Below are positions 1 through 16,761 of a stretch of 64,000 nt of DNA, one piece after another. The DNA lies in IMG/VR virus record IMGVR_UViG_3300036791_001038, positions 13,233 through 77,232 of that record; one strand, 5' to 3'. The notes below the pieces were generated by a model. It was given only the letters and a program-made list of their open reading frames with translations, was not told where the DNA came from and made no database searches. Origin of the DNA: a virus. Position 1 is the stretch's first letter. The number at the start of each line of letters is the position of its first letter. The translations under genes were made by a program, and so were the position numbers.

Positions 1-1
1 C

Positions 2-3000
2 AACCTGTCCGGCAAGTCTGAGGGCGAGGCCGTTGAGCAGCACGGCCCGCACCTCTGCACCCATTGCTTCAAGTCCGCTCCCACCGAGTGGAAGCGGGAT
101 CCGGCCGAGACGCGCGCCGAGGAGAAGAAGAAGTCGGGTGAGTATTGCGAGGGCGGCAAGGCCAGCAGCTACCCCGACGCCGAGGAGCGCGCCCGGCGCA
201 AGGCCACCCATCCGCAAGGCAAGGTCAAGCTAGAGCCCGGCGAGGCCATGTACACCGGCCAGCGGGGTGGCTACCAGGGCCGTTGCCCCACCTGCAAGAC
301 CATCCAAAAGGTCAAGAACTCCGGCGAGTTCTACCAGCACAAGCCGCCCGAGGTACCCAAGGAGGAGAAGCCCAAGGTCGAGCGGCCGGTGCTACCTGAT
401 CCTGGTAAGGGGCTCAAGACCCATCTGCGGCAGAAGCATCAGATGAATACCCATGATTTCGACTCGTACCAGCAGTATCAACCGGATAAATCGCTGGATC
501 AGATCCATAGTGATCTGCATGAGAAATACGATAACAATCAGCATGCACCGAACAATCACACCCATGGTGGGTCTGCGCCGCCTGCCACCACGGTCATGAC
601 CCCGCCCAGGGAAGGCTCCAGGAGGGGCCTAAGAGCCTTTGTAGGGGCTGATGCCTCGGGGATAACGGTGGCCGGTCTCGCGGTGGTGGCCCGCGACACC
701 GGCCGGGTGCTGATGCTGCAGCGCCTGCTCGATGGTAAGGATCCGGCCGGGGGTACCTGGGAATGGCCAGGCGGTCATATCGGTCAGGACGAATCACCTA
801 TCGAGGGAGCCATCCGCGAGTGGAAGGAAGAAGTCGGTCAGCATCTCCCTGAGGGCCATGTAGGGGGCTCCTGGGACTCCAAGGGGATGTATCAGGGATT
901 CGTGTACGTCATCCCCTCTGAGGACGACATCGAGGTCTACAGCGGCAAGCGACCGGTCACCAATCCCGATGATCCCAAGGGCGACAATCCCGAAGCCGTG
1001 GCCTGGTGGGATCCCAAGGACCTGCCCGACATGCCCGCTCTGCGCCCTGAGTGCAAGACCACCGACTGGTCGCTGTTCAAGCCCGCTGCTATTGCGAAGG
1101 TGGCCGTCGAGGAGAAGCCCTCAGAGCCCTGGTATCACAGCGCCGACGACTATGAGGGCGCAGTAGGTGACCGTACTCATATCACCCGTAATGTGCAGAT
1201 GGATCTACCCACCCATCTGGTCGCTCATATGCCCGGTGTGATGGATGAGCGTCCTGGCGAACACCGTAACATGCAAGGTGATAAGTGGGAGGACTTCAAG
1301 AATGACATCTCTGCCAACGGCATCAAAAACCCGCTCTTTATCACGGTGGATCACGGCCAGCGACCCAGGCTGTCTGAGGGCAACCACCGCAGAGACGCGG
1401 CGATTGAGCTAGGCCTCAAGCACGTCCCGGCCCAGGTGCGCTACTACGGTCACGCCGAGCGGGACAGCGACCTGGAGGACCAGGCCCGCAAGTGGTGGAC
1501 CCACAATCCCCAGCATCTGCCCAGAACCTCGGCTAGAGCGTCCAGGATCAAATGGGATCAGGTCGAACAGGATTACGAACATTCAGGACCGAGTGATTAC
1601 GGAGGTGCTTACTGGATAACCCCCTCCGGTAAGAACTTGAATGTCGGTGAATACCATTCCAATCTCTTCAAACATCCGGCCGTTGGTTACAATCCGAATG
1701 CTAAGCCGGAGTATGCCGATGAGGATTCCCGTCATGTGCTGGCTCAGGGTGGGGTGCGGATCATGCATCTGCCCAACTCCGCCTATGGCAATCGCATAGC
1801 CGTCGAGCATCACCATCCTCTCACCGAGGGCCAACAGAAGACCCTGATCAGCTTCGTGCATCGCTCCCATCCTGATTCCCTGGACTATGACGGCCCGAAT
1901 GGCTATCGGCAGTTCGACTTTCCCACTGGGGCCGATGTCCGTAAGCATCTGTCCAAAGAGGCCGCCTACGACCTCCTCGGTCCAGGCAAAGGCCACTACT
2001 TCGAGCCGGTGGAGGAGGGCAGCGACTGGTGCGCCGTCTGCGGTCACGATCGCCGGGTGACCAAGCATCCCCTGCCCAAGCAAGCGGCCGCCGAGCGTCA
2101 ATATCTCTATCACACTTCTCCCGTTCATAATCGAGCGAGTATTACCGAGAAGGGTCTGCTTCCTAATCAACCAGGTCATGAAGACGAACCTGAGCTTCCT
2201 AAGGGAGTCTATCTTGACTCTGATGAAAAGATGGCTCTCGATACCGGTAATGATTATGGAGAAGATGTATGGAAGGTGGATGTCACTGGATTAAAACATC
2301 ATGTTGATCCTTATTGGGAGGGAGTTGCTCATCGACCTAATACCAGTCATTACGTCAAAGGAGCCATCCCACCTCATCGTGTGACTCTACACCGGCCTGC
2401 ATCATGGCATGAATGCTCTGATAAGTCTTGTCACCTTGCAAGGATCGGGCTGCGGGCCTTTGTGGCGCTGGTGGTCCCCAAGACCTTCTTTCATGGCACC
2501 ACTGAAGAACTGCAGCCTGGAGATGTCCTGCATCCCGGCAATGAGATGGGGCTGAAGACACACCCTCAACTGCACAAGTGGCGGGGGGATCATGTCTGGG
2601 CCACCCCCGAGGAGGCCGGGGCCTGGGGCTACTCCGAGCAGGCCGAAACCAGCCGGGGCACCCACCACGTTTATGGACCAACGGTCGGTGATCGCCCCCG
2701 GCCTCGGGTCTATGAGGTCGAGCCCATGGGACCGGTGCAGAAGCGCCGTCGTCTGAGTCCCTTCGACCCCGAAGAATACACCATGCCCTCGGCCAGGGTC
2801 CTGCGCTCCATCGACATCCCCCACCCCGAGGTGCCGTTACCCACTCAGGGCAAGCCCTCCGGTGGGGGTATGCAGGGTCGTCTCCCCGGCGAGAAGAGTT
2901 GGGAGAACTGGAAGACCCTGGAGCCCGACGCGGCCGATCTCTCCGAGCATTGGGAACTGTCCCGGCGTCGTCATCCAGAGGCCTGGGCGGCGGGTGATAA

Positions 3001-6000
3001 GGAAGAGCCAGCCCCAGAGACCGATGAGCATCAGCAGAAGCTCTTCGCGGCTCGAATGGCCGCGCTCCGGGCCTTCATAGCCGTCAACAGTTCAGATGAA
3101 GTACCGCCACCCATGGGGGAGTCGCCCATCCCCGAGGGCCATGTGCGGCTGTTCCACCAGACCTCGGTGAAGCAGGCCGAGTCGGTGCGCCAGCACGGGC
3201 TGACCATGGAGCATGCTCGCGATGTCAGCGGGCCACGCGGCGTCTGGGCCAGTCATGGCACCCGTTTCTACGGCGAAGGCGATGAGCATGCCACCGTGGA
3301 GTTCCACGTCCCTTACGACGAGCTACGCGACACGGCCGGAGGTCAGTCCCCGCATCGGCATCAGCCTCAGGAGGACTGGGAGAAGAGTACTCACCACACC
3401 CTGATTATCCCCCGCTCTATCAAGCCGCATGAGATCTCCGCTATCCATCTGCCCTGGCACAATCGTTATCACTACTTCCATGACAACGGCATGACTGATG
3501 ATGTGAAGAAGGGTGAGTACGACAACCTGTCCGACATGAAGGACTACGGCCCGGCCATCGACAAGATCAAGCACGAAGCTCTGCGTCATTTGGCCATGCA
3601 AGCCGAGGACGAGGTACCGCCCCGGCTCGGGACCGCGCCCATCCCCGAGGACCACGTCCGGCTCTACCACCACACCTGGTCAAGGAACGTTCCCGGCATC
3701 CGGGAGCATGGCCTGCTGGCCGAGATGGGCCAGGGCGACAGCGGCAAGGGCTACGGCAACGAGGCATCAGCGGGGGTATGGGCCGCCAGTCAGCATCCCG
3801 AGCCTGATCCCCAGAGTGACCGGCATGTGATCGAGTTCCACGCCCATCCAAGAGAGATCGATGTCAACGGCCCCTCTCCTGGCCAGGACATCCATAAATG
3901 GCAGCAGGGCGATCACAACGTCCTGATGCGGGGCAGTGTGCCGAAAGAGAACATCCTGGCTATTCACGCCCCTTGGCATACCGCTTATCATCAGATCTCC
4001 GAGGATGCCCGCGACCGGGAGGATGTGAAAGGCGGCAAGCTGGACTGGGTCCACAACGATCCCAGCATGAAGGAGATCAGCAAGGCCGTCCACAAGATCC
4101 AGTCCGAAGCCAAGAAGACCCGCAACACCGAGAAGCCTCAGCAATGCAACTGGTGCAAGCAGCCCGCCACCAAGTCCATGCTGTGGGCCGAGGGTATGGG
4201 GTACATCCCCACCTGTGACAAGCATGAGGCAAAGACCCGTGACCACATCGAGAACACCAATGATGACGAGGTCGTTGCCATCCACCAGATCAAGCAGGGA
4301 GCCAAGCAGCCCTATATCGGCAAGGGCTGGTGGCTGACGCCCGAGGGCAAGAAGATCGGGGTCTACGACCACTACGAGACCACTCCGGGGATGGCCCGGC
4401 AGATGATTCGTCCTCACATGGCCGAGAGTGGTCAGGTCCGGGTCCGTAGCTTCAACAATCAACTCAACGTGCAAACGTCGCGGCCGTTCACCGATGCTCA
4501 GCGCCAGAGCTTGCTGCTGGATGCCGATAAGCATTCCCGCATGTTCGTGGACGTGCTACACCCCGACACCGAGGAGTCCATCCACTCCGAGTCCGGTGGC
4601 CCCGAGGACGCCGATCGCATGCTGGCCCGAGCCCACCGGGCCGCCATACCCCACACGGCCGCCCTGACTCTCCTGGCCGATCAGCCCTACGCCGGAGGTC
4701 ACACCTTCCAGTTCATCAAGGCCACCCCCAAGGTGATGGGTGGTAGCTCCCTGCACGAACTGCGGGCCTATCCCGAGGGCGAGTCCAAGCGCTACTCCGG
4801 GTCGCTGCGATGGTCATACAAGTCTGGTGAGATTGCCGGTATCGACGTGGACAAGGACCAGCAGCGTCAGGGCCTGGCCACCGAGCTACTGGGCCGGGCA
4901 CGCGATATCGCCGCCACCACCCGAGGGGTGATCGCTCCCAAGCACTCCGATCAACGCACCAACGAGGGAGAGGCTTGGGCGCGCTCGACCGGCGATCGGC
5001 TGCCCCGGCGGCTCACCGGACTGGGGGTGTTCGTGGCCGCTTTTGGACAACCACAGCTATTCGATCCCGGTAGTGGTGGCCATGAGCATCTACCCAATCC
5101 TCGGGGTGGGCTGGACTGGCATCACGGCACTCCGCATCACTTCGAGAGCTTCGAGGAGGAGCGCCCGGAAGAAGACGATCCCTATGGCGGGTATGACTTC
5201 GAGACCGGCGAGAAGTTCAAGCAGCCCCATTGGAACACCCACCTGGGCCAGCACTGGACCTCCCTGCCGGGCGTGGCCGAGCATTTCGCCAAGGGCCAGT
5301 ACGGTCAGTATGGGGAAGGCAAGGGTCATGTCATCACCGCTAACCTGGGCGTAAAGCACCCCAAGGACTACAAGCTCGAATCCCACATGGACAAGGAGGC
5401 CTTCGAGCATGCCTGGGACGGGCATGATCCCCACGATTACCACGATGAGTTCTGCCATAACCCGGAGCATCGAGACGACCCCGACGAGGAGCATTTCGAT
5501 GACGAGCCCTACCACTACAACGACCAGCATGAGCGCGGCGACGAGGTGGACCGCCAGGTCCAGGCCCGCTACCGGGACCGGGAGCAGCAGGGCGAGTGGC
5601 TGAGCCAGCATCCCGACTCGGGCTCCCTGGCCGAGAGCTTCAAGGACAAGGTCCGCCAGGAGGGTCATGACGGCATCACCTACGGCAACGAGCTAGAGGG
5701 GCCGCACGGCCACCAGTGCGCCATCACCTTCGATGAGCATCAGATCCACAACCCCCGCCGCCGGGCTCTGGGCAAGCTGGCGGTCGAGGACTACGACACC
5801 CTGTACCACATCACCGATCAGCACCACTTCGCCCTGGACCCTGAGCATGCCCCCCAGGACAACGCCTTCGCCATCCAGGACCGCTCCCACTACAAGGGCC
5901 TATACGCGACCAAAGACCCTGACACCTGGCGGGCGCAGGGCTACCACCGGCCTTACGTGGCCGAACTGCACGTCCCCCATGGGCTGGCCCAGCAGGAGCG

Positions 6001-7813
6001 CTGGCACGGGGAGAGCTTCATTCCGGCCGAGCATTTCGACAAGGTCAAGGTCAACCGGGTCATCCCCTTCGATGCTCATCAGCGTGAGAAGTGGGGTGAG
6101 CCCGGCACCATCGAGAGCTACCACGGCACCCACTACCAGACCAACCAGCCGCTCAAGAAGAAGCCGGGCTGGGAGTCATCGGACTACTACGAGGCGGATG
6201 AGAACGAGCCTGCAACCAAGGACGTGCGCGACTTCACCCCGAAGGAACACACCCGTCATCTCAAGCGGCTGCGCGAGTACCTGCACCACGTCCAGGGTTG
6301 GGGCTGGAACGAGTTCAACCAGAAGCATGAGCATGTCGGCATAGGCGAGGACGAACAAGACGAAGAGGGCATGCCCATCCGGCGGGACCAGAAGGGCCAG
6401 CCCATGACCCGAGATCGCTATGCAGCCAAGACCGGGCCGATCTACTACCACGGCCATGGCCGGGGAGGAGCCCGAGCCGCGACCGGCGATCCCGAGTGGG
6501 ACGACAACCTCTTCGTCAGCCACGATCCCGAGGTGGCCAAGCTGTACGGCCCCAAGCTGGATCGCATCCAGATGGCCCCCGACACCAAGGTGGCCCGCCA
6601 TGAACACTGGCTGGGCGCGCAGAGGCCTGACATTGCCCTCAATCTCCTGCGTAAGGCCAAGGCTAAGAACGCCGATGTGATCGAGTTCCACAAGCCTCAT
6701 GACTTCGTCGGTCACATCATCCTGAACAAGGACAAGATCGTCAGCCGGGAGCCCTATGATCCCGGTCATACCGCCATGGCCGATCGAGGCGACTACGGCA
6801 TGGAGCATTCCCCCCACCTGGAGGGACCGGCCTTGCACGAACTGGGGCACAGCTATCCCGACATCTACGACCATCCCGAGTACTACGGCTCCATGCATGA
6901 ACGGCCCGGCCGGGAGTCAGCCCGCGCCCTGAAGAGGGCCAAGGGCATCGGCCCCGACGACCAGGTCAGCATCTACCGGGCCGCTCCGCACGGGGTCACC
7001 ACCTTCAACCACGGCGACTGGGTCACCCTCTCCCCCAGCTACGCCCAGCAGCACAGCCGCCACCCCACCGACGAGAGCCGGGACATGCCCATCTACAAGG
7101 CCCAGGTGGCGGCCAAGCACGTCCACTGGGACGAGAACGACATCAACGAGTTCGGCTACTCCGGCCCCGAGGTACCCGCCACCAAGCACCTACCGGGTGG
7201 TCCTGACGCGCCGCGCCTGGCTGCCTTCGTGGCCGCCCTGGACCCCGGCCAGGTCTCCGAGGCATCCCCGGAGGAGTTCCATCGCCGCTTCTCCGAGGCT
7301 ATGGAGGGCAGCCCCTTCGTCCACCATGTGACCAACCACACTCCCGAGGAGATCCGCTCGGGCGGCATGCGCCCGCTCACCACCAACGGTGGCGACACCG
7401 GGGTGCTGGTGCATGACCACGGCGACGGCCGTATCGAGGCCACCGGCCTGTACAACCGCTCCAAGGTCAAGGGCGCGGGGGTCGATCTGCTCAAGCATAC
7501 CATGGAGCATCATGGCGTGAACTACGTCGAAGCGTATGGACCTAGACTTCCCCAGTTGTACCGACGAGCAGGCTTCCAGACCACCGAGAAATATCGCTTC
7601 GATCGTGAGCAGGCTAACCCTGGCTGGGATTTTCGCCAGTTCGATTCGCCTAGCTATCACATCATGCACCCACGTAACACTCAGAAGTCTGGTAAGGTGA
7701 TCTCATGGCCTTCGACCGCCAGCGTTCCATTCCTGTTCCCATCAACGAGCCTGAGCCCTCCGAGGGGGCTATCAGCCTTTGGGATGTTGACTGGGACGAC
7801 CCCGAGCAGGTAG
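2..7813 (+). CDS. Giant polyvalent multi-effector protein (NUDIX, ParB-like, multiple ADP-ribosyltransferase-fold, GNAT and Zn-finger domains); 5'-truncated by the window edge
   Basis: The frame is open from base 2 (NLSGKSEGEAVEQHGPHLCTHC...) through the ATG at 248 to the stop at 7813. Motifs: Nudix box GGHIGQDESPIEGAIREWKEEVG; ParB-like GIKNPLFI..EGNHRRDAA; repeated (Y/F/W)-H-x-T ART motifs; GNAT motif A VDKDQQRQGLATELL. Confidence 0.85.
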   Translation, partial: NLSGKSEGEAVEQHGPHLCTHCFKSAPTEWKRDPAETRAEEKKKSGEYCEGGKASSYPDAEERARRKATHPQGKVKLEPGEAMYTGQRGGYQGRCPTCKTIQKVKNSGEFYQHKPPEVPKEEKPKVERPVLPDPGKGLKTHLRQKHQMNTHDFDSYQQYQPDKSLDQIHSDLHEKYDNNQHAPNNHTHGGSAPPATTVMTPPREGSRRGLRAFVGADASGITVAGLAVVARDTGRVLMLQRLLDGKDPAGGTWEWPGGHIGQDESPIEGAIREWKEEVGQHLPEGHVGGSWDSKGMYQGFVYVIPSEDDIEVYSGKRPVTNPDDPKGDNPEAVAWWDPKDLPDMPALRPECKTTDWSLFKPAAIAKVAVEEKPSEPWYHSADDYEGAVGDRTHITRNVQMDLPTHLVAHMPGVMDERPGEHRNMQGDKWEDFKNDISANGIKNPLFITVDHGQRPRLSEGNHRRDAAIELGLKHVPAQVRYYGHAERDSDLEDQARKWWTHNPQHLPRTSARASRIKWDQVEQDYEHSGPSDYGGAYWITPSGKNLNVGEYHSNLFKHPAVGYNPNAKPEYADEDSRHVLAQGGVRIMHLPNSAYGNRIAVEHHHPLTEGQQKTLISFVHRSHPDSLDYDGPNGYRQFDFPTGADVRKHLSKEAAYDLLGPGKGHYFEPVEEGSDWCAVCGHDRRVTKHPLPKQAAAERQYLYHTSPVHNRASITEKGLLPNQPGHEDEPELPKGVYLDSDEKMALDTGNDYGEDVWKVDVTGLKHHVDPYWEGVAHRPNTSHYVKGAIPPHRVTLHRPASWHECSDKSCHLARIGLRAFVALVVPKTFFHGTTEELQPGDVLHPGNEMGLKTHPQLHKWRGDHVWATPEEAGAWGYSEQAETSRGTHHVYGPTVGDRPRPRVYEVEPMGPVQKRRRLSPFDPEEYTMPSARVLRSIDIPHPEVPLPTQGKPSGGGMQGRLPGEKSWENWKTLEPDAADLSEHWELSRRRHPEAWAAGDKEEPAPETDEHQQKLFAARMAALRAFIAVNSSDEVPPPMGESPIPEGHVRLFHQTSVKQAESVRQHGLTMEHARDVSGPRGVWASHGTRFYGEGDEHATVEFHVPYDELRDTAGGQSPHRHQPQEDWEKSTHHTLIIPRSIKPHEISAIHLPWHNRYHYFHDNGMTDDVKKGEYDNLSDMKDYGPAIDKIKHEALRHLAMQAEDEVPPRLGTAPIPEDHVRLYHHTWSRNVPGIREHGLLAEMGQGDSGKGYGNEASAGVWAASQHPEPDPQSDRHVIEFHAHPREIDVNGPSPGQDIHKWQQGDHNVLMRGSVPKENILAIHAPWHTAYHQISEDARDREDVKGGKLDWVHNDPSMKEISKAVHKIQSEAKKTRNTEKPQQCNWCKQPATKSMLWAEGMGYIPTCDKHEAKTRDHIENTNDDEVVAIHQIKQGAKQPYIGKGWWLTPEGKKIGVYDHYETTPGMARQMIRPHMAESGQVRVRSFNNQLNVQTSRPFTDAQRQSLLLDADKHSRMFVDVLHPDTEESIHSESGGPEDADRMLARAHRAAIPHTAALTLLADQPYAGGHTFQFIKATPKVMGGSSLHELRAYPEGESKRYSGSLRWSYKSGEIAGIDVDKDQQRQGLATELLGRARDIAATTRGVIAPKHSDQRTNEGEAWARSTGDRLPRRLTGLGVFVAAFGQPQLFDPGSGGHEHLPNPRGGLDWHHGTPHHFESFEEERPEEDDPYGGYDFETGEKFKQPHWNTHLGQHWTSLPGVAEHFAKGQYGQYGEGKGHVITANLGVKHPKDYKLESHMDKEAFEHAWDGHDPHDYHDEFCHNPEHRDDPDEEHFDDEPYHYNDQHERGDEVDRQVQARYRDREQQGEWLSQHPDSGSLAESFKDKVRQEGHDGITYGNELEGPHGHQCAITFDEHQIHNPRRRALGKLAVEDYDTLYHITDQHHFALDPEHAPQDNAFAIQDRSHYKGLYATKDPDTWRAQGYHRPYVAELHVPHGLAQQERWHGESFIPAEHFDKVKVNRVIPFDAHQREKWGEPGTIESYHGTHYQTNQPLKKKPGWESSDYYEADENEPATKDVRDFTPKEHTRHLKRLREYLHHVQGWGWNEFNQKHEHVGIGEDEQDEEGMPIRRDQKGQPMTRDRYAAKTGPIYYHGHGRGGARAATGDPEWDDNLFVSHDPEVAKLYGPKLDRIQMAPDTKVARHEHWLGAQRPDIALNLLRKAKAKNADVIEFHKPHDFVGHIILNKDKIVSREPYDPGHTAMADRGDYGMEHSPHLEGPALHELGHSYPDIYDHPEYYGSMHERPGRESARALKRAKGIGPDDQVSIYRAAPHGVTTFNHGDWVTLSPSYAQQHSRHPTDESRDMPIYKAQVAAKHVHWDENDINEFGYSGPEVPATKHLPGGPDAPRLAAFVAALDPGQVSEASPEEFHRRFSEAMEGSPFVHHVTNHTPEEIRSGGMRPLTTNGGDTGVLVHDHGDGRIEATGLYNRSKVKGAGVDLLKHTMEHHGVNYVEAYGPRLPQLYRRAGFQTTEKYRFDREQANPGWDFRQFDSPSYHIMHPRNTQKSGKVISWPSTASVPFLFPSTSLSPPRGLSAFGMLTGTTPSR

Positions 7814-7944
7814 CCGCGCTCAAGGCCCAGACCGAAGCCGAGCTTGAGGCCGAGAACCCCGAGGATTGGGCCGCCATGACGCCCGAGCAGAGGGAGAACT
7901 CCTGGAAGGCGGCCCTCGCTCAACTCGGCGTACACGGCGTCTGA
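7705..7944 (+). CDS. Small acidic protein (79 aa), overlapping the 3' end of the giant ORF
   Basis: SD-like AAGGTGA upstream of the ATG; phage-like codon usage; the stop lies just before the promoter motif at 7946. Confidence 0.6.
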   Translation: MAFDRQRSIPVPINEPEPSEGAISLWDVDWDDPEQVAALKAQTEAELEAENPEDWAAMTPEQRENSWKAALAQLGVHGV

Positions 7945-7945
7945 G

Positions 7946-7981
7946 CCTGTCGGGCGCTCCCTGAGCGCGCCGAAGTGGTGA
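7946..7981 (+). promoter_or_regulatory. Putative phage late promoter, copy 1 (CCTGTC-N19-CGAAGnnnTGA)
   Basis: Same motif and spacing at 10472, 14248, 14706, 31073 and 36400; the ATG at 7983 follows almost immediately. Confidence 0.7.
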
Positions 7982-7982
7982 G

Positions 7983-10217
7983 ATGTCTCTGGTCGCCACC
8001 GCCAAAGAGCAGACCACGGTGCCGCCCGAGGTGGACACCATGCGGGAGGAGATCTGCCCGGTCTGCGGCTCGGACGACTCCTACGTGGGTGACAAATGCT
8101 CGGTGTGCGGCTTCGAGAAGCCCCCGTCGCTGTTCATGGACCCCGACACCTCCCTGGCCCAGAACGTCAACCTGCGCCAGCAGGACCAGGAGGACGCCAA
8201 CGACGACGGGGCCGGGGATCTGCAGTGCCCCGAGTGCGGGGAGACCTTCTCCTCGGCCGAGGCCCTGAACCAGGCCGGGGACCCCCACCTGGCCCCGGCC
8301 GCCCAGACCATCCCGGCCGAGCAGGACCTGGTCGCTCCCGAGGAGGGCTCAGAAGAGCCGGAGGGGCCGCTGGAAGCCCCCGAGGACGAGGATGAGAACC
8401 AGATGGCCCCAGGCCCGCCTGAGGACGCCATGGGCGTTCCTGGGCAGCCTGAGCCCCCCGAGGAGGACCAGGAGGAGGAGCTACCACCGGGTCAGCCCGA
8501 GGACCAGGACGAGGTAGCTCCCGGCCAGGAGGGACCAGAGCCGCCCGAGGGGGAGCTTGACGGCGAGGAGATCCCCGAGGGGGCCGAGGAGGAAGAGGAG
8601 CCTGAGCAGGCCGAGCAGGAACAGGTCGATCCCGAGGCCATGGCCGAGCAGCAGTATGCCGCCGATCAGCAGGGCATGGCCGACACCGGCTACGAGGAGG
8701 GCGACATCTGCCCCAACTGCGGTCAAGGCATCCTGCAGGAAGTCGGCCCGGAAGGCCCCATCGTCCCGCCCGAGACCAGCAGCCCGCGCACCGCCCCTGA
8801 CTCCGGTGACCAGGGCCAGTCACCCTTCCCGGTCAGCGACGAGGACGAAGAGGATGAGGGTGACCAGGAAGAGGCACCCGGCGCAGACGAGGCCGAGGAG
8901 TCCGGCGGTCAGTCCGACATAGCCCCCGAAGACCAAGACGACGGGGATGAGGACCAGGAGCCAGACGATGAGGACGGGGACGAGGATGAGGACGAGGATG
9001 GCATCCCTCCCTGGGTGAAGAAGAAGACAAGTTCACATGAACTACCAGCCATAGGAAGGAGCCCCAGTACCATGGCCAACCGCACCCGCACCAACGGTCG
9101 CGTCACGCCCCGACAGCCCCAAACCACCACCCGCACCGCCAACACCGCTCAGCCCGAGCCCACGCCCCGGACCTCGGTGCGGACGGCCCTGCACGCCTCG
9201 CTCAACCAGCAGGCCCATGTGCTGCGCCAGATGACCGCGGCCTGCCAGCAGGAGCGCATCCTGCGCCTGGCGGCCGAGGCCCGCATCACCACCTTGGAGC
9301 GCCAGATGCTGCGCTTCGCCCAACTGGCCGGGGCCGATCACGATGCCGAGCTTCGCTCCCTCAACGAGGAGGGCTACCGGACCCACACCGCCCTCATGGC
9401 CCGTGCCGCCTCCCTGCATGACACCACTCGGCACATTGCCGACCAGCGCGACCCCGGTCAGCCCGTGCCCGAGCCCGCCCCGGCTCCTCCGGTGGTGACC
9501 GAGCAGGAGGCGGCCCAGCCCGCCGGGCGGGACGACGTGACCCAGCTTGGGGCCACTCCGGTGGCCGACGTGTCCGCCGACGCCACCCTGGCCGTGGACG
9601 AGCCCTACGGCACGGCTGCCTTCGAGCCCCTCAACCTCAACCAGGTGGACGTGACCGCCCCGGTCCAGAACACCCAGGGCCATCTGCCCCCCGAGCAGAC
9701 CATCATCCCCGTCGAGGTGCGCGTCGGTGACCCCGACGATCCCCAGCCCAGCTTCGGTTGGACCATCGACGGTGGCAACCCCTCCGGTCAGACCGGGGGC
9801 TCGGTGGGCTCAGGGGCTCCCACGGGAGCCGGGCGCGGCGCACCAGGGGTCCAGCCCGGCACCACCGCGGCCCGCAACGACGGCCAGGTCTCCCTGGGAG
9901 CCCTGCGGCTGGCTCGGCTCCGCATGCAAGCTGGTATTGCCCCGGCCAACCAGGACGACCTGTCCATCGCCGCGGCCATCCAGGACAACCCGGCCCTGAC
10001 CGTCGAGGCCATCAACACCGAGATCCGCACCCTGACCCAGGTGTTGTCGGCCCAGCCTCAGGCCCAACAGCGCACCGCCGCCGCCAGCCGTCGCCTGGTC
10101 CCCCGTGCCGCGCCGGGGGCCGAGCCCATGCCCTCTCTGGCCCCGAGCGGGGAAGGCCCCATTCGATCCCACGCTTCTACCGGGCAAGTTACGGCAGATG
10201 AGATGCTCTTCGAATAG
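7983..10217 (+). CDS. Capsid scaffolding/maturation protein with N-terminal Zn-ribbons and a long acidic region
   Basis: CPVCG/CSVCG/CPECG/CPNCG motifs, a D/E-rich tract and a helical C-terminal half; lies two genes before the major capsid gene. Confidence 0.65.
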   Translation: MSLVATAKEQTTVPPEVDTMREEICPVCGSDDSYVGDKCSVCGFEKPPSLFMDPDTSLAQNVNLRQQDQEDANDDGAGDLQCPECGETFSSAEALNQAGDPHLAPAAQTIPAEQDLVAPEEGSEEPEGPLEAPEDEDENQMAPGPPEDAMGVPGQPEPPEEDQEEELPPGQPEDQDEVAPGQEGPEPPEGELDGEEIPEGAEEEEEPEQAEQEQVDPEAMAEQQYAADQQGMADTGYEEGDICPNCGQGILQEVGPEGPIVPPETSSPRTAPDSGDQGQSPFPVSDEDEEDEGDQEEAPGADEAEESGGQSDIAPEDQDDGDEDQEPDDEDGDEDEDEDGIPPWVKKKTSSHELPAIGRSPSTMANRTRTNGRVTPRQPQTTTRTANTAQPEPTPRTSVRTALHASLNQQAHVLRQMTAACQQERILRLAAEARITTLERQMLRFAQLAGADHDAELRSLNEEGYRTHTALMARAASLHDTTRHIADQRDPGQPVPEPAPAPPVVTEQEAAQPAGRDDVTQLGATPVADVSADATLAVDEPYGTAAFEPLNLNQVDVTAPVQNTQGHLPPEQTIIPVEVRVGDPDDPQPSFGWTIDGGNPSGQTGGSVGSGAPTGAGRGAPGVQPGTTAARNDGQVSLGALRLARLRMQAGIAPANQDDLSIAAAIQDNPALTVEAINTEIRTLTQVLSAQPQAQQRTAAASRRLVPRAAPGAEPMPSLAPSGEGPIRSHASTGQVTADEMLFE

Positions 10218-10535: not shown

Positions 10536-11171
10536 GTGATTCGTGTCCCCATCTCTCGGTCGTACATCAAGCGGACGATCCGGGTCAACTACGGCTGGAC
10601 CCAGGCCACCCCCAAGAGTGGCTACCTCGATCCCGCTTGGAACCGCTCGGTGCCCATCTGGCCTGGCATGGCCTTCATGAGGACCTCCGGCGCGTCTGGC
10701 TACACCAGCCCGTACCAGAGCTTCGGAGCCACCTCGGGTGGTCCCAACTACACCCTGCTCAACGCCACCGGGGTACCGGCCGGGTTCGTGGGCAACTACA
10801 TCGGCGGCGAGGGCATCGATGAGCTTCTCGACACCGGCCTGTCCGCCCTGGCCGTGTGGGTCCTCGACCCCGACGCCGAGTTCGAGATCCTGGCCCCGGC
10901 CTTCGACGCCAACCTGGTCTGGACCGACCCCGGCAACGGCACCGACGCCCTGGTCTATGCCCGCACCTCCAATCTGGCGGGGGCGGTGGGCCTCAACGGT
11001 CTGGGTGGGGCCATCGCGGCAGGCTCCTACACCGGCACCTACGGCCTGCAGGGCCAACTGGTGACCACGGCCGACGCCAACAAGTCCACCCAGCCGGTGG
11101 CCCGCCTGGTGGCCGTCAACTCCAACCTGTCCATCACCATCGGTGGCCTGGCCGTCCGCTCGGGCTTCTGA
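10536..11171 (+). CDS. Capsid decoration/minor head protein
   Basis: Immediately upstream of the major capsid gene; SD GGAGG; KRTIR..Y...QATP and IDEL...LAVWVLDPDAEFEILAPAFD segments resemble the equivalent Bxz1-like gene (recalled). Confidence 0.7.
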   Translation: MIRVPISRSYIKRTIRVNYGWTQATPKSGYLDPAWNRSVPIWPGMAFMRTSGASGYTSPYQSFGATSGGPNYTLLNATGVPAGFVGNYIGGEGIDELLDTGLSALAVWVLDPDAEFEILAPAFDANLVWTDPGNGTDALVYARTSNLAGAVGLNGLGGAIAAGSYTGTYGLQGQLVTTADANKSTQPVARLVAVNSNLSITIGGLAVRSGF

Positions 11172-11214: not shown

Positions 11215-12207
11215 ATGACTCTGGTTGCCAACGTTGCGGGGCTAGCTCCAAAGCGGGCCAAGAAGTCCGACGACTACGTCGCTGAGATCCTCAAGCGGCG
11301 CGGCGGGGATGGCAACGTCCCGTCGCTGACCCATGAGGCCAAGGTCCGCAAGCTCTCCCTGATCCTCCAGGACGAGGTCAACGGCATCCGCCGTCTGGGC
11401 GTGGGCATGGTCGGACCCATCCAGTTGAAGCTGCGCTACCAGGGCATCACCCGCAACGTGCTGATCGAGGACCCAGTCACCCCCGGCACCCCGGTCGAGT
11501 ACGACGTGTGGGACGACCTGGGCCAGGCCTACCTCATGAGTGGCACCGAAGGCGAGGTCCGGGTCACCCCCTTCGAAGGCAAGCGCCTGCCCATCCGGTT
11601 CTGGCGTATCGCCTCCCGTCCGGCCATCCGCAAGGAGGACCTGTTCTACCTCCGCATCAACGCGGTGGAGCAGGCCCAGGACGAGACCAAGCAGGCCATC
11701 ATGAAGCAGGAGGACTCCCGCCTCCTGGTCATCATCCAGGCCGCCCTCACCGACTACGCCTCCAGGCCCGACCATGTCGTCACCCCCAACCACACCGTCT
11801 ACGAGGCCAGCGGCTACTTCACCCCGCAGTCCATGTACACCGCGGTGGCCCAGTCCGACATGCACGAACTGCCAGCCGGGCGCATGCTGGTCAACCCCTT
11901 CGACTACCGGGACTTCTTCCGCTGGGACATCAACACCACCGGCTGGGCCTTCAAGGACCGCATTGTGGCCGGGGAGCAGATCCAGACCTTCGGGGAGTTC
12001 AACTTCCAGCGCTCCATCATGGTCCCCCAGGGCCAGATGTACCTGCTGCCCAACCCGGACTTCCTGGGCGTGTTCCCGGTGCTGTACTCGCTCGACGTGG
12101 AGGAGAACCACAACGTCGAGGCCTTCTGGAAGGGCTGGGTTTTCGATGAGATGGTCTCCATGGCCATCCTCAACCCCAGGGGCATCACCACCGTCCTCAA
12201 GGGCTAG
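11215..12207 (+). CDS. Major capsid protein (Bxz1-like)
   Basis: SDDYVAEI, GPIQLKLRYQGITRNVL, RWDINTTGWAFKD and FLGVFPVLYSLDVEE closely match my recollection of cluster C phage capsid proteins; SD AGGAG. Confidence 0.92.
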   Translation: MTLVANVAGLAPKRAKKSDDYVAEILKRRGGDGNVPSLTHEAKVRKLSLILQDEVNGIRRLGVGMVGPIQLKLRYQGITRNVLIEDPVTPGTPVEYDVWDDLGQAYLMSGTEGEVRVTPFEGKRLPIRFWRIASRPAIRKEDLFYLRINAVEQAQDETKQAIMKQEDSRLLVIIQAALTDYASRPDHVVTPNHTVYEASGYFTPQSMYTAVAQSDMHELPAGRMLVNPFDYRDFFRWDINTTGWAFKDRIVAGEQIQTFGEFNFQRSIMVPQGQMYLLPNPDFLGVFPVLYSLDVEENHNVEAFWKGWVFDEMVSMAILNPRGITTVLKG

Positions 12208-16104: not shown

Positions 16105-16761
16105 ATGCCCACCCCGTCCCCCAAGCTCGGGCTGAACATCTTCGCCCTGGCTGACACCTTCTCGACCGCCCAGTACAACGCCAACTGGAACGCGCTCGAT
16201 AACTACCCCGGTCTGTTCGTCTGCACCTCGACCAGCAGACCGGCCTGGGGGGCCAACCAGAACGGCATGCGGATCTCCGAGACCGACACCGGGCTGTTGT
16301 GGACCTGGAATGGGACGGCCTTCGTGCGGACCCATGGGATCGGCAACCTGGGCCGGGTCACTCGCACCTCCAACGTCGGCACCACCTCGACCTGGACGCC
16401 GCCCTCGACCGGCTCACCCACCTCGGCCCTGACCCAGACGGTGCATCCTCCCAATGGCGGTCGTTTGCTCATGATCGTGGCCGAGGTGCCCGAGGTGCAG
16501 AACCCCAACGGGCTCAGCTACCTGATCATCCAGCGCGACGCCACCATCTTGAACTCCTACCCGGTGTGGACCTCCCAGGAGACCGGCTCGGGTAACTCCG
16601 GCAACGCCGGGAACAAGGGCGACTTCACCACCTTCGACATCCCCAACGAGGCGTCGGCGGTGTACTCCCTGTTCTTCGCGGCGGCCACCGTCACCGGGGG
16701 CACCACCACCCTGGTGGCGGCAGCCTCCCGGCCCATCGCTTTAACCGTGATCGAGACGTAG
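16105..16761 (+). CDS. Minor tail/fibre protein
   Basis: MPTPSPKLGL..NWNALD..PG...CTSTSRP...ETDTG motif typical of actinophage minor tail proteins. Confidence 0.7.
   Translation: MPTPSPKLGLNIFALADTFSTAQYNANWNALDNYPGLFVCTSTSRPAWGANQNGMRISETDTGLLWTWNGTAFVRTHGIGNLGRVTRTSNVGTTSTWTPPSTGSPTSALTQTVHPPNGGRLLMIVAEVPEVQNPNGLSYLIIQRDATILNSYPVWTSQETGSGNSGNAGNKGDFTTFDIPNEASAVYSLFFAAATVTGGTTTLVAAASRPIALTVIET

Follow-up and report, generated by a model that had tools for sequence, protein, structure and literature searches.

What purpose is served by a short peptide that returns again and again at the domain boundaries of a single, very large phage gene? The question is raised by a giant open reading frame (ORF) at the 5' edge of a stretch of viral DNA of 64,000 nucleotides (nt), bases 13233-77232 of the 77-kb IMG/VR record IMGVR_UViG_3300036791_001038, which is estimated to be 54% complete. 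This whole stretch is called the window below, and positions refer to it unless stated otherwise. An earlier reading of the window's letters (the original prediction) had taken the peptide for a mark of prohead-protease cleavage or capsid targeting. We think it on balance probable that the giant ORF encodes a multi-effector virion polyprotein of the polyvalent type, headed by the capsid-maturation serine protease of the phage itself.

The ORF fills positions 2-7813 of the window on the + strand, is open at the 5' edge and has no start inside the window. When the frame was walked and translated in the full record, its true start was found to be a GTG at genome position 11323, 1909 nt upstream of the window, preceded by the ribosome-binding-like GAAGGGGTGAGG. 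The product, P0002, has 3240 amino acids (aa), of which the window holds aa 638-3240 (1-7813, +; ORF walk, translation and Pfam/PHROG matches). After the protease the domains follow in the order GNAT, phrog_2433 module, NUDIX, ParB_N, Arr-ms-like ADP-ribosyltransferase, second GNAT, phrog_2579 and phrog_2563, with long unannotated stretches between the matches. The cargo modules are GNAT, Nudix, ParB-like and several ADP-ribosyltransferase-like domains, together with unannotated domains. NUDIX (E 1e-14) and the first GNAT (Acetyltransf_1, E 2e-9) match above the Pfam cut-offs; ParB_N, Arr-ms and the second GNAT are weaker matches below them. There are also modules matched by PHROG families only. 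Domain searches gave no match to MuF in P0002, and an ART-PolyVal match was seen only in the relative P0008, at 28.1 bits, under the cut-off of 31.2. A megablast search of window positions 1-8000 against phage records gave no match. Within the phrog_2579 module there is a HELGH motif of the HExxH type (6836-6850, +, aa 2916-2920).

The repeated peptide, called the tag in the following, comprises eight residues with the consensus G-L-x-[AG]-F-[VIL]-[AG]-A. A table of 40 distinct sequences (41 instances) from six proteins gives the column counts G(30) L(39) x A(29) F(40) V(30) A(33) A(24); the flanks are basic at -4/-3, have Ala at -1 and show a loose acidic run 9-13 residues downstream. For scoring we built a position-specific scoring matrix (PSSM) from the relatives P0003-P0008 only, leaving P0002 out. 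P0002 has seven solid copies, two upstream of the window and five inside it. The upstream copies, GLGAFVAS and GLRAFVAA, belong to the same ORF and precede the window by 790 and 460 nt. The five strong copies of the original prediction are all present in the + frame of the giant ORF. The first of them, tag 3, is GLRAFVGA (626-649, aa 846-853, 20.7 bits), 6 aa ahead of Nudix, and tag 4 is GLRAFVAL (2447-2470, aa 1453-1460, 11.5 bits), 6 aa ahead of the Arr-ms-like ADP-ribosyltransferase. Tag 5, ALRAFIAV (3062-3085, aa 1658-1665, 15.0 bits), stands where homology blocks with P0003 and P0004 begin. Tag 6, GLGVFVAA (5018-5041, aa 2310-2317, 23.0 bits), is found 33 aa past the second GNAT, and tag 7, RLAAFVAA (7214-7237, aa 3042-3049, 11.4 bits), 7 aa ahead of the GNAT-like phrog_2563 module. 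An eighth copy, (R)GLSAFGML (7766-7789, +, 8.7 bits), ends 8 aa from the stop and is doubtful, because it overlaps a -1-frame ORF that is conserved in P0004 and because this tail is not kept in the 89%-identical P0010.

Is this number of copies more than chance would give? The PSSM found 8 matches of at least 8 bits in P0002 and none between 6 and 8 bits, compared with 0.05 matches of at least 8 bits per shuffled protein. The strict core GL.[AGSVL]F was observed 6 times against 0.18 expected. Each of eight relatives (~2,800-3,300 aa) has 7-10 PSSM matches of at least 8 bits, and the strict core occurs 4-8 times per close relative where 0.1-0.2 would be expected (5-8 times in six of the eight). 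When 4-mers that recur in a single protein are counted without bias, AFVA, FVAA and SKTA rank just below DPNA. At the level of DNA the copies differ: the Gly, Leu and Phe codons vary synonymously (GGC/GGA/GGG, CTG/CTC/CTA, TTC/TTT), and the Val position is read from GTG, GTA or ATA (GTG and GTA both for Val), so that conservation acts on the protein.

The codons also bear on the idea that the tags are internal translation starts, with GGAGCC as a Shine-Dalgarno sequence, GTG as the start and the modules made separately. The first copy reads GGA GCC TTC GTG, and a public gene call for this record (P0038, 2862 aa) begins near that very Val. However, two copies have GTA or ATA as the Val codon, four have AGA or CGG at the codon upstream, and the sister pair P0007/P0008 uses G-L-x-A-F-A, which has no Val at all. 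Internal initiation is hardly credible in the face of this variation and we have rejected it.

Next, we asked where the tags are placed with respect to the domains. All seven solid copies lie outside the Pfam and PHROG domain envelopes, 6-33 aa and typically 6-12 aa from their edges. Maps of BLASTP blocks show each relative to be a mosaic built from a common set of modules in varying order, and 27% of 643 internal homology-block ends fall within 15 aa of a tag, compared with 8.1% when tag positions were drawn at random (never above 14.9% in 2000 trials). A homology break was found near 55 of 64 tags. The tag is not as frequent inside domains as at their boundaries, and the preference for boundaries that had been claimed for it is borne out, with a roughly 3-fold enrichment of block ends.

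The clearest cases are those in which a cassette is present in one phage and absent in another. In P0004 the GNAT module is joined by a single tag, SLAAFVAA, directly to the phrog_2563 module; here, the same two modules are separated by 724 extra residues (aa 2318-3041, 5042-7213, +), a multi-domain cassette with a tag at either end. In P0010 a further module of ~135 aa follows directly on tag 3, the tag ahead of Nudix. A given downstream module is preceded by a tag regardless of the module upstream of it. The cassette system that the original prediction had imagined can therefore be seen in homologous phages, which gain or lose cassettes exactly at the tag, and these comparisons of sequences support the tag as the joint signal of a modular system.

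Such breakpoints could also mean that the tag is a neutral linker kept as a recombination joint, a short piece of conserved DNA that aids exchange in a protein that is never cut. The concentration of breakpoints at the tags is what this explanation would lead one to see, and a 12-nt sequence, GCCTTCGTGGCC, is common to four of the seven solid copies. It does not account for amino acids that stay while their codons vary synonymously, for a peptide that is kept in proteins with unrelated flanks and proteases 68-86% identical, or for the fusion of a protease to the chain; we consider it quite unlikely. At the level of DNA, the comparison among relatives rests on the genome of P0004 (L005/G001).

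Not every joint bears a full tag. The original prediction had named three weaker versions, each of which scores below 6 bits; all the same, each stands at a real module joint, as a decayed or alternative form. EALRHLAM (3575-3598, +, aa 1829-1836) marks the joint of two tandem paralogous modules, where ALRAFIAVNSS-DEVPP and EALRHLAMQAE-DEVPP align, an arrangement conserved in P0004 and P0010. RALGKLAV (5762-5785, +, aa 2558-2565) is found where the homology to P0005 ends at RRxALG; P0005 continues with LKSFVAE, i.e. with the tag ALGLKSFVAE. The third version, HTAA(LTLLA) (4652-4678, +, aa 2188-2196), belongs to a shorter class of joint, [KRH]TA[AGS]: the homology to P0004 and P0005 stops at IPHTA, and block ends cluster at aa 2185-2192. 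Similarly, the joint between Nudix and ParB, KPAAIAKVAVEE in P0002, aligns with a full tag, KKTAGLEAFLAAY, in P0004.

The short class is itself enriched. Across the wider family [KR]-T-A-[AGS] was observed 89 times against 10.4 expected (~8-fold), placed just past the protease domain and between modules, and it can replace the long tag at equivalent joints. The phrog_2563 module, which is preceded by SLAAFVAA in P0004, has the joint ERTAA-LDP in P0007 compared with RLAAFVAA-LDP here, and ahead of the Arr-ms-like module EHTAAKE-TFFHG in P0008 corresponds to GLRAFVALVVPK-TFFHG here, while P0010 has GLWAFAREIPK at this place. Tag and short motif share a core made of a beta-branched residue, Ala, and Ala or Ser. 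A looser rule that had been proposed for the remaining boundaries, [K/R/H]-x-[A/S/G], carries no information (125 observed vs 133 expected in P0002), and a motif [LF]SSG (8 observed vs 5.4 expected) is not used in this family.

What could recognise these joints? Residues 30-210 of P0002 match phrog_2774 (E 7e-67) and phrog_18299, 'head maturation protease' (E 1.9e-22). These PHROG families are its only sequence matches: no Pfam family was found at E <= 10, and neither a sequence search nor a profile search of the PDB gave a match. A first AlphaFold2 (AF2) run on residues 1-280 of P0004 with a shallow alignment of 9 sequences reached a predicted local distance difference test score (pLDDT) of 58; Foldseek found nothing with this model, and assemblin matches by VIA-align were within noise. 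We remade the model with an alignment of 38 sequences and obtained a pLDDT of 85. With this model Foldseek placed T4 gp21 (5jbl) on top with a probability of 0.97-0.99, followed by herpesvirus proteases. A structural scan of 48,161 chains again ranked T4 gp21 first (5jbl, Z 10.3, 126 aa, root mean square deviation 2.6 A), and the proteases of varicella-zoster virus (Z 9.5), human cytomegalovirus (Z 7.4) and Kaposi's sarcoma-associated herpesvirus (Z 6.5) took ranks 2-4; the first unrelated chain after these four had Z 6.4. Since gp21 and the herpesvirus proteases take all four top ranks as well as the top Foldseek matches, we regard the T4 gp21/herpes assemblin fold of the modelled domain as established.

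His77 and Ser135 are invariant across the 38 sequences and are likely to be the catalytic residues of the phage protease, as far as conservation can tell. In hhalign they fall on the ELNH and GVS segments of T4 gp21, in a weak alignment with a probability of only 1%; these segments we take to hold the catalytic His85 and Ser140 of gp21. The protease family is large: 1.84 billion representatives were searched and 2362 proteins matched at E <= 1e-3. In each of the 150 best family matches the domain stands at the N-terminus. The closest named phages are cluster C mycobacteriophages, with protease domains 50% identical.

With a protease at the head of the chain and tags at its joints, the best reading, to which we give somewhat better than even credence, is that the fused protease cleaves the chain at the tags. 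The polyprotein would enter the prohead together with its protease, which would read the tag as the non-prime side of its cleavage site and cut at the C-terminal edge of the tag, leaving the tag on the upstream module and freeing the downstream one. The pieces would remain in the head and then enter the host with the DNA. As every module brings a tag along at its 3' edge, new functional arrays would arise by recombination at the tags, and this would account for the shuffling of cassettes. The part played by a prohead protease in the original prediction thus gains a gp21/assemblin-fold protease fused to the same polypeptide, but loses both the generic short rule and the T4/phiKZ rule on which it had leaned.

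The T4 and phiKZ substrates are separate genes and are cut after Glu (L/I-x-E or S/A/G-x-E). In the 40 tag sequences the invariant Glu at P1 is missing and Glu is not conserved at any column, so that the tag does not follow this rule. This is the first of a number of points that weigh against cleavage at the tags. The eight conserved residues exceed the three-residue rules of T4-type proteases, several joints of P0002 bear only decayed tags, and in the AF2 model of residues 1-280 of P0004 the first tag has a pLDDT below 50 and is undocked from the protease. While the T4/phiKZ motif marks all substrates of its protease, the tag is absent from scaffold and capsid: a six-frame PSSM scan of the record gave no convincing tag in scaffold, capsid or other long ORFs, and in a complete 157-kb relative the tag was found in no long ORF other than the giant gene. 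Relatives with 60-70% identical proteases are entirely without the tag. Moreover, the tag stays with the upstream module, at its C-terminal edge, and in P0005 (..GLADFALSGAS), P0008 (..AALAAFAL) and P0009 (..GLNGFIGSLEK) it forms the C-terminus of the protein, where nothing is left to release.

Potentially, the tag could therefore be a peptide for loading or retaining cargo, which docks on the interior of the HK97-fold shell or on the scaffold, any cleavage taking place elsewhere, e.g. at [KRH]TA[AS]. This is the main rival to cleavage at the tags. That the tag moves with the upstream module and ends three proteins speaks for it, as do its length and hydrophobicity, its confinement to the polyprotein and absence from other protease substrates such as the scaffold, and its restriction to that clade in which the scaffold part, which would otherwise bring the polyprotein into the prohead, has been lost from the chain. 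On the other hand, a single element would suffice for a covalent chain, which leaves a copy at nearly every joint unexplained, and the four-residue [KRH]TAA that replaces the tag at equivalent joints is too short to dock; the match to the encapsulin consensus is no more than a putative resemblance. We hold docking with cleavage elsewhere to be possible, yet rather unlikely. Because the tag travels with the upstream module, ends proteins, is confined to the polyprotein, is long and has no conserved Glu, it may have a role in docking or retention, alone or in combination with cleavage. In the combined form the protease would cut at the C-terminal edge of the tag, and the retained G-L-x-A-F-V-A-A would then load or retain the cargo on the HK97-fold shell; to this dual role we assign a small probability, slightly lower than that of docking with cleavage elsewhere.

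The narrow distribution of the tag has to be weighed as well. At least two tags were found in 9 of 181 family proteins, namely in the clade of ~3,000 aa and in P0041 (826 aa, protease 91% identical), and the strict core is absent from relatives of ~2,000 aa. In the 157-kb relative a degenerate DNA pattern of the tag matches 5 times on the forward strand, always in the giant gene, and a control pattern does not match. There is a single match on the reverse strand, which occurs also in this record, out of frame, in an open stretch of 66 codons. This is an identical 20-nt sequence, GGCTTGTTGGCGTTCATGGC, which reads G-L-L-A-F-M-A (G000 2544-2563 and G001 80474-80493, both on the - strand) and is located ahead of the head module; its reading frame probably does not match that of a conserved gene on the opposite strand. 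In the PSSM scan, a match of 16 bits at the N-terminus (KLGLNIFALADTFS) of the ORF at 16105-16761 (+) was set aside as chance-like and unconnected with the tag. This N-terminus (MPTPSPKLGLNIFALADTFS..) reads like the start of a tail-fibre-type protein, judged by eye and with one weak PHROG match.

A tag that is absent from the scaffold and the capsid proteins might be cut by another protease, either a host enzyme acting after injection or a different enzyme of the phage, for which the HELGH at 6836-6850, within one of the modules, would be a candidate. By the pattern searched, however, HELGH is present in P0002 and P0010 only among eight tag-bearing proteins, and PF18818, the MPTase-PolyVal zincin peptidase, has no match anywhere in the record; as the record is 54% complete, the absence of a second protease is weak evidence. 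We judge another protease to be improbable, and return to the fused protease as the enzyme that most probably cuts at the tags.

How does this arrangement compare with known systems? Polyvalent proteins with assemblin-like peptidases have been predicted to undergo processing during virion assembly (PMC5512222). As in these proteins, many conflict-type domains (ADP-ribosyltransferase, GNAT, ParB-like and Nudix) are found here in one late-gene chain among head genes; the known chains are predicted to be packaged, processed by the in-chain peptidase and injected, and show extensive domain mosaicism (PMC5512222). With its effector-type domains P0002 falls within the range of 2-15 unrelated ones per chain that defines the class. 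Iyer, Burroughs, Anand, de Souza and Aravind (2017) mention assemblin-like peptidases only at C-termini and describe no joint motif (PMC5512222). Here, in contrast, the protease is N-terminal, as it is in the 150 best relatives, and an eight-residue tag marks the joints. As far as sequence comparison goes, three features clearly distinguish the present proteins from the known ones: a defined eight-residue tag, the N-terminal protease and the comparative evidence of cassette exchange.

There is precedent in T4, phiKZ and SPN3US for the cutting of head proteins by a protease of the gp21 fold (PMC7411985, PMC10052503). In these phages, proteins packaged in the head (in T4 the internal proteins and Alt) carry a short motif that recurs and at which they are cut, and they are ejected into the host. 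The protease of the present phage resembles T4 gp21, phiKZ gp175 and SPN3US gp245 in its fold (Z 10.3 to T4 gp21). Unlike in T4 and phiKZ, the putative substrates are strung on the protease itself.

A further comparison is with the protease-scaffold polyprotein of herpesvirus UL26, in which the R and M sites follow a V/L/I-x-A-S rule, with the cut between Ala and Ser. In 109 relatives of the giant protein the N-terminal assemblin-fold protease is followed by the scaffold in the same chain, as in UL26, with small-residue sites after the protease and ~20-60 aa from the scaffold C-terminus, both with an Ala-Ala/Ser ending that may resemble the herpesvirus rule. The site near the scaffold C-terminus is of the [KR]TA[AGS] type in 25 of the 109, and others have looser variants. 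The present phage differs from UL26 in that its scaffold is a separate gene and that the protease is followed by ~3,000 aa of effector modules instead. In its position the tag is similar to the cargo-loading peptides of encapsulins and the C-terminal targeting tail of the HK97 protease, each being a short Gly- and hydrophobic-rich element at the C-terminal edge of a cargo for an HK97-fold shell. Unlike these, it recurs at joints within the chain, where a motif of four residues can take its place.

Turning to the 3' end of the giant gene, we found a 79-codon ORF in the -1 frame (7705-7945, +; three-frame translation and comparison with the P0004 tail) that overlaps the last 109 nt of the giant ORF. 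Its ATG has an AAGGTG resembling a ribosome-binding site 5 nt ahead of it. The encoded product shares homology with the C-terminal module of P0004, which is in frame there and follows a KTAA joint. A programmed -1 frameshift was considered and rejected; since there is no slippery heptamer, the 79-codon ORF is probably a separate overlapping gene. A module fused after KTAA in P0004 and encoded as a gene of its own here supports the view that independent proteins are divided at the joints. Selection at the level of the protein may be absent from the final ~36 codons of the giant ORF.

The genes that directly follow provide a late, virion structural context. A GC-rich gene (7983-10217, +), 170 nt downstream of the giant ORF, encodes an acidic scaffold-like protein of 744 aa with three zinc-ribbon-like CxxC pairs. 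In 109 relatives the scaffold part is the C-terminal portion of the protease protein (anchor VDT[LM]R..CPVCG), and from this homology the 744-aa gene is taken to be a detached part of an ancestral protease-scaffold fusion. The sites similar to those of the giant ORF that had been claimed for the scaffold are there as far as the RTAAA type is concerned (RTAAA, 10071-10085), but the strong tag is absent. A [KRH]TA[AGS] site just ahead of the scaffold anchor was found in only 11 of 112 fused relatives, which makes the argument for a 'natural split' of the scaffold weak. Next come a capsid cement protein (10536-11171, +; PF23968, E 4.6e-24) and the major head protein (11215-12207, +; phrog_2522, E 2e-93), which has no junction tag in the six-frame PSSM scan.

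The order of protease protein, cement and major head protein is shared with the Mycobacterium cluster C phages (Bixzunavirus, e.g. Cali), with the protease identity given above. Unlike the giant protein, gp93 of Cali has 1286 aa, ends in the scaffold part and is without the GLxAF tag. Its RefSeq note (NC_011271, L004) reads 'tape measure'. As its N-terminus is a capsid protease domain, its C-terminus is scaffold-like and its gene precedes those of the cement and major head proteins, this note is probably wrong.

One more element was seen within the giant ORF. An intact gene for a 147-aa HNH homing endonuclease (L002:11977-12420, -; 813-1256 nt before the window start; phrog_1872, E 5e-30; PF13392) lies antisense inside it, codon-for-codon in register, after the protease domain and ahead of the first tag. 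Across this gene (aa 219-366) the + frame of the giant ORF is uninterrupted, which would happen by chance in ~0.17-0.20 of cases if the usage of the TTA, CTA and TCA codons is taken into account. The insert is missing from P0010, the closest relative. Intein/Hint domains are found in the relatives P0009 and P0037, so that, taken together with the HNH insert, the giant gene is a recurrent target of selfish elements.

If the tag is indeed a code for processing or loading, it would explain how one phage lineage can use a single gene to pack and exchange a dozen or more counter-defence enzymes. Being short and transferable, the signal would also serve to load proteins of choice into phage capsids. 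Should the dual role be true, the tag would be the phage counterpart of the encapsulin targeting peptides, a portable 'cut and keep inside' code for any domain. For the tailed phages, a processing or loading code would extend the herpesvirus-like layout, an N-terminal assemblin protease with its substrates in the same chain, to the delivery of cargo.

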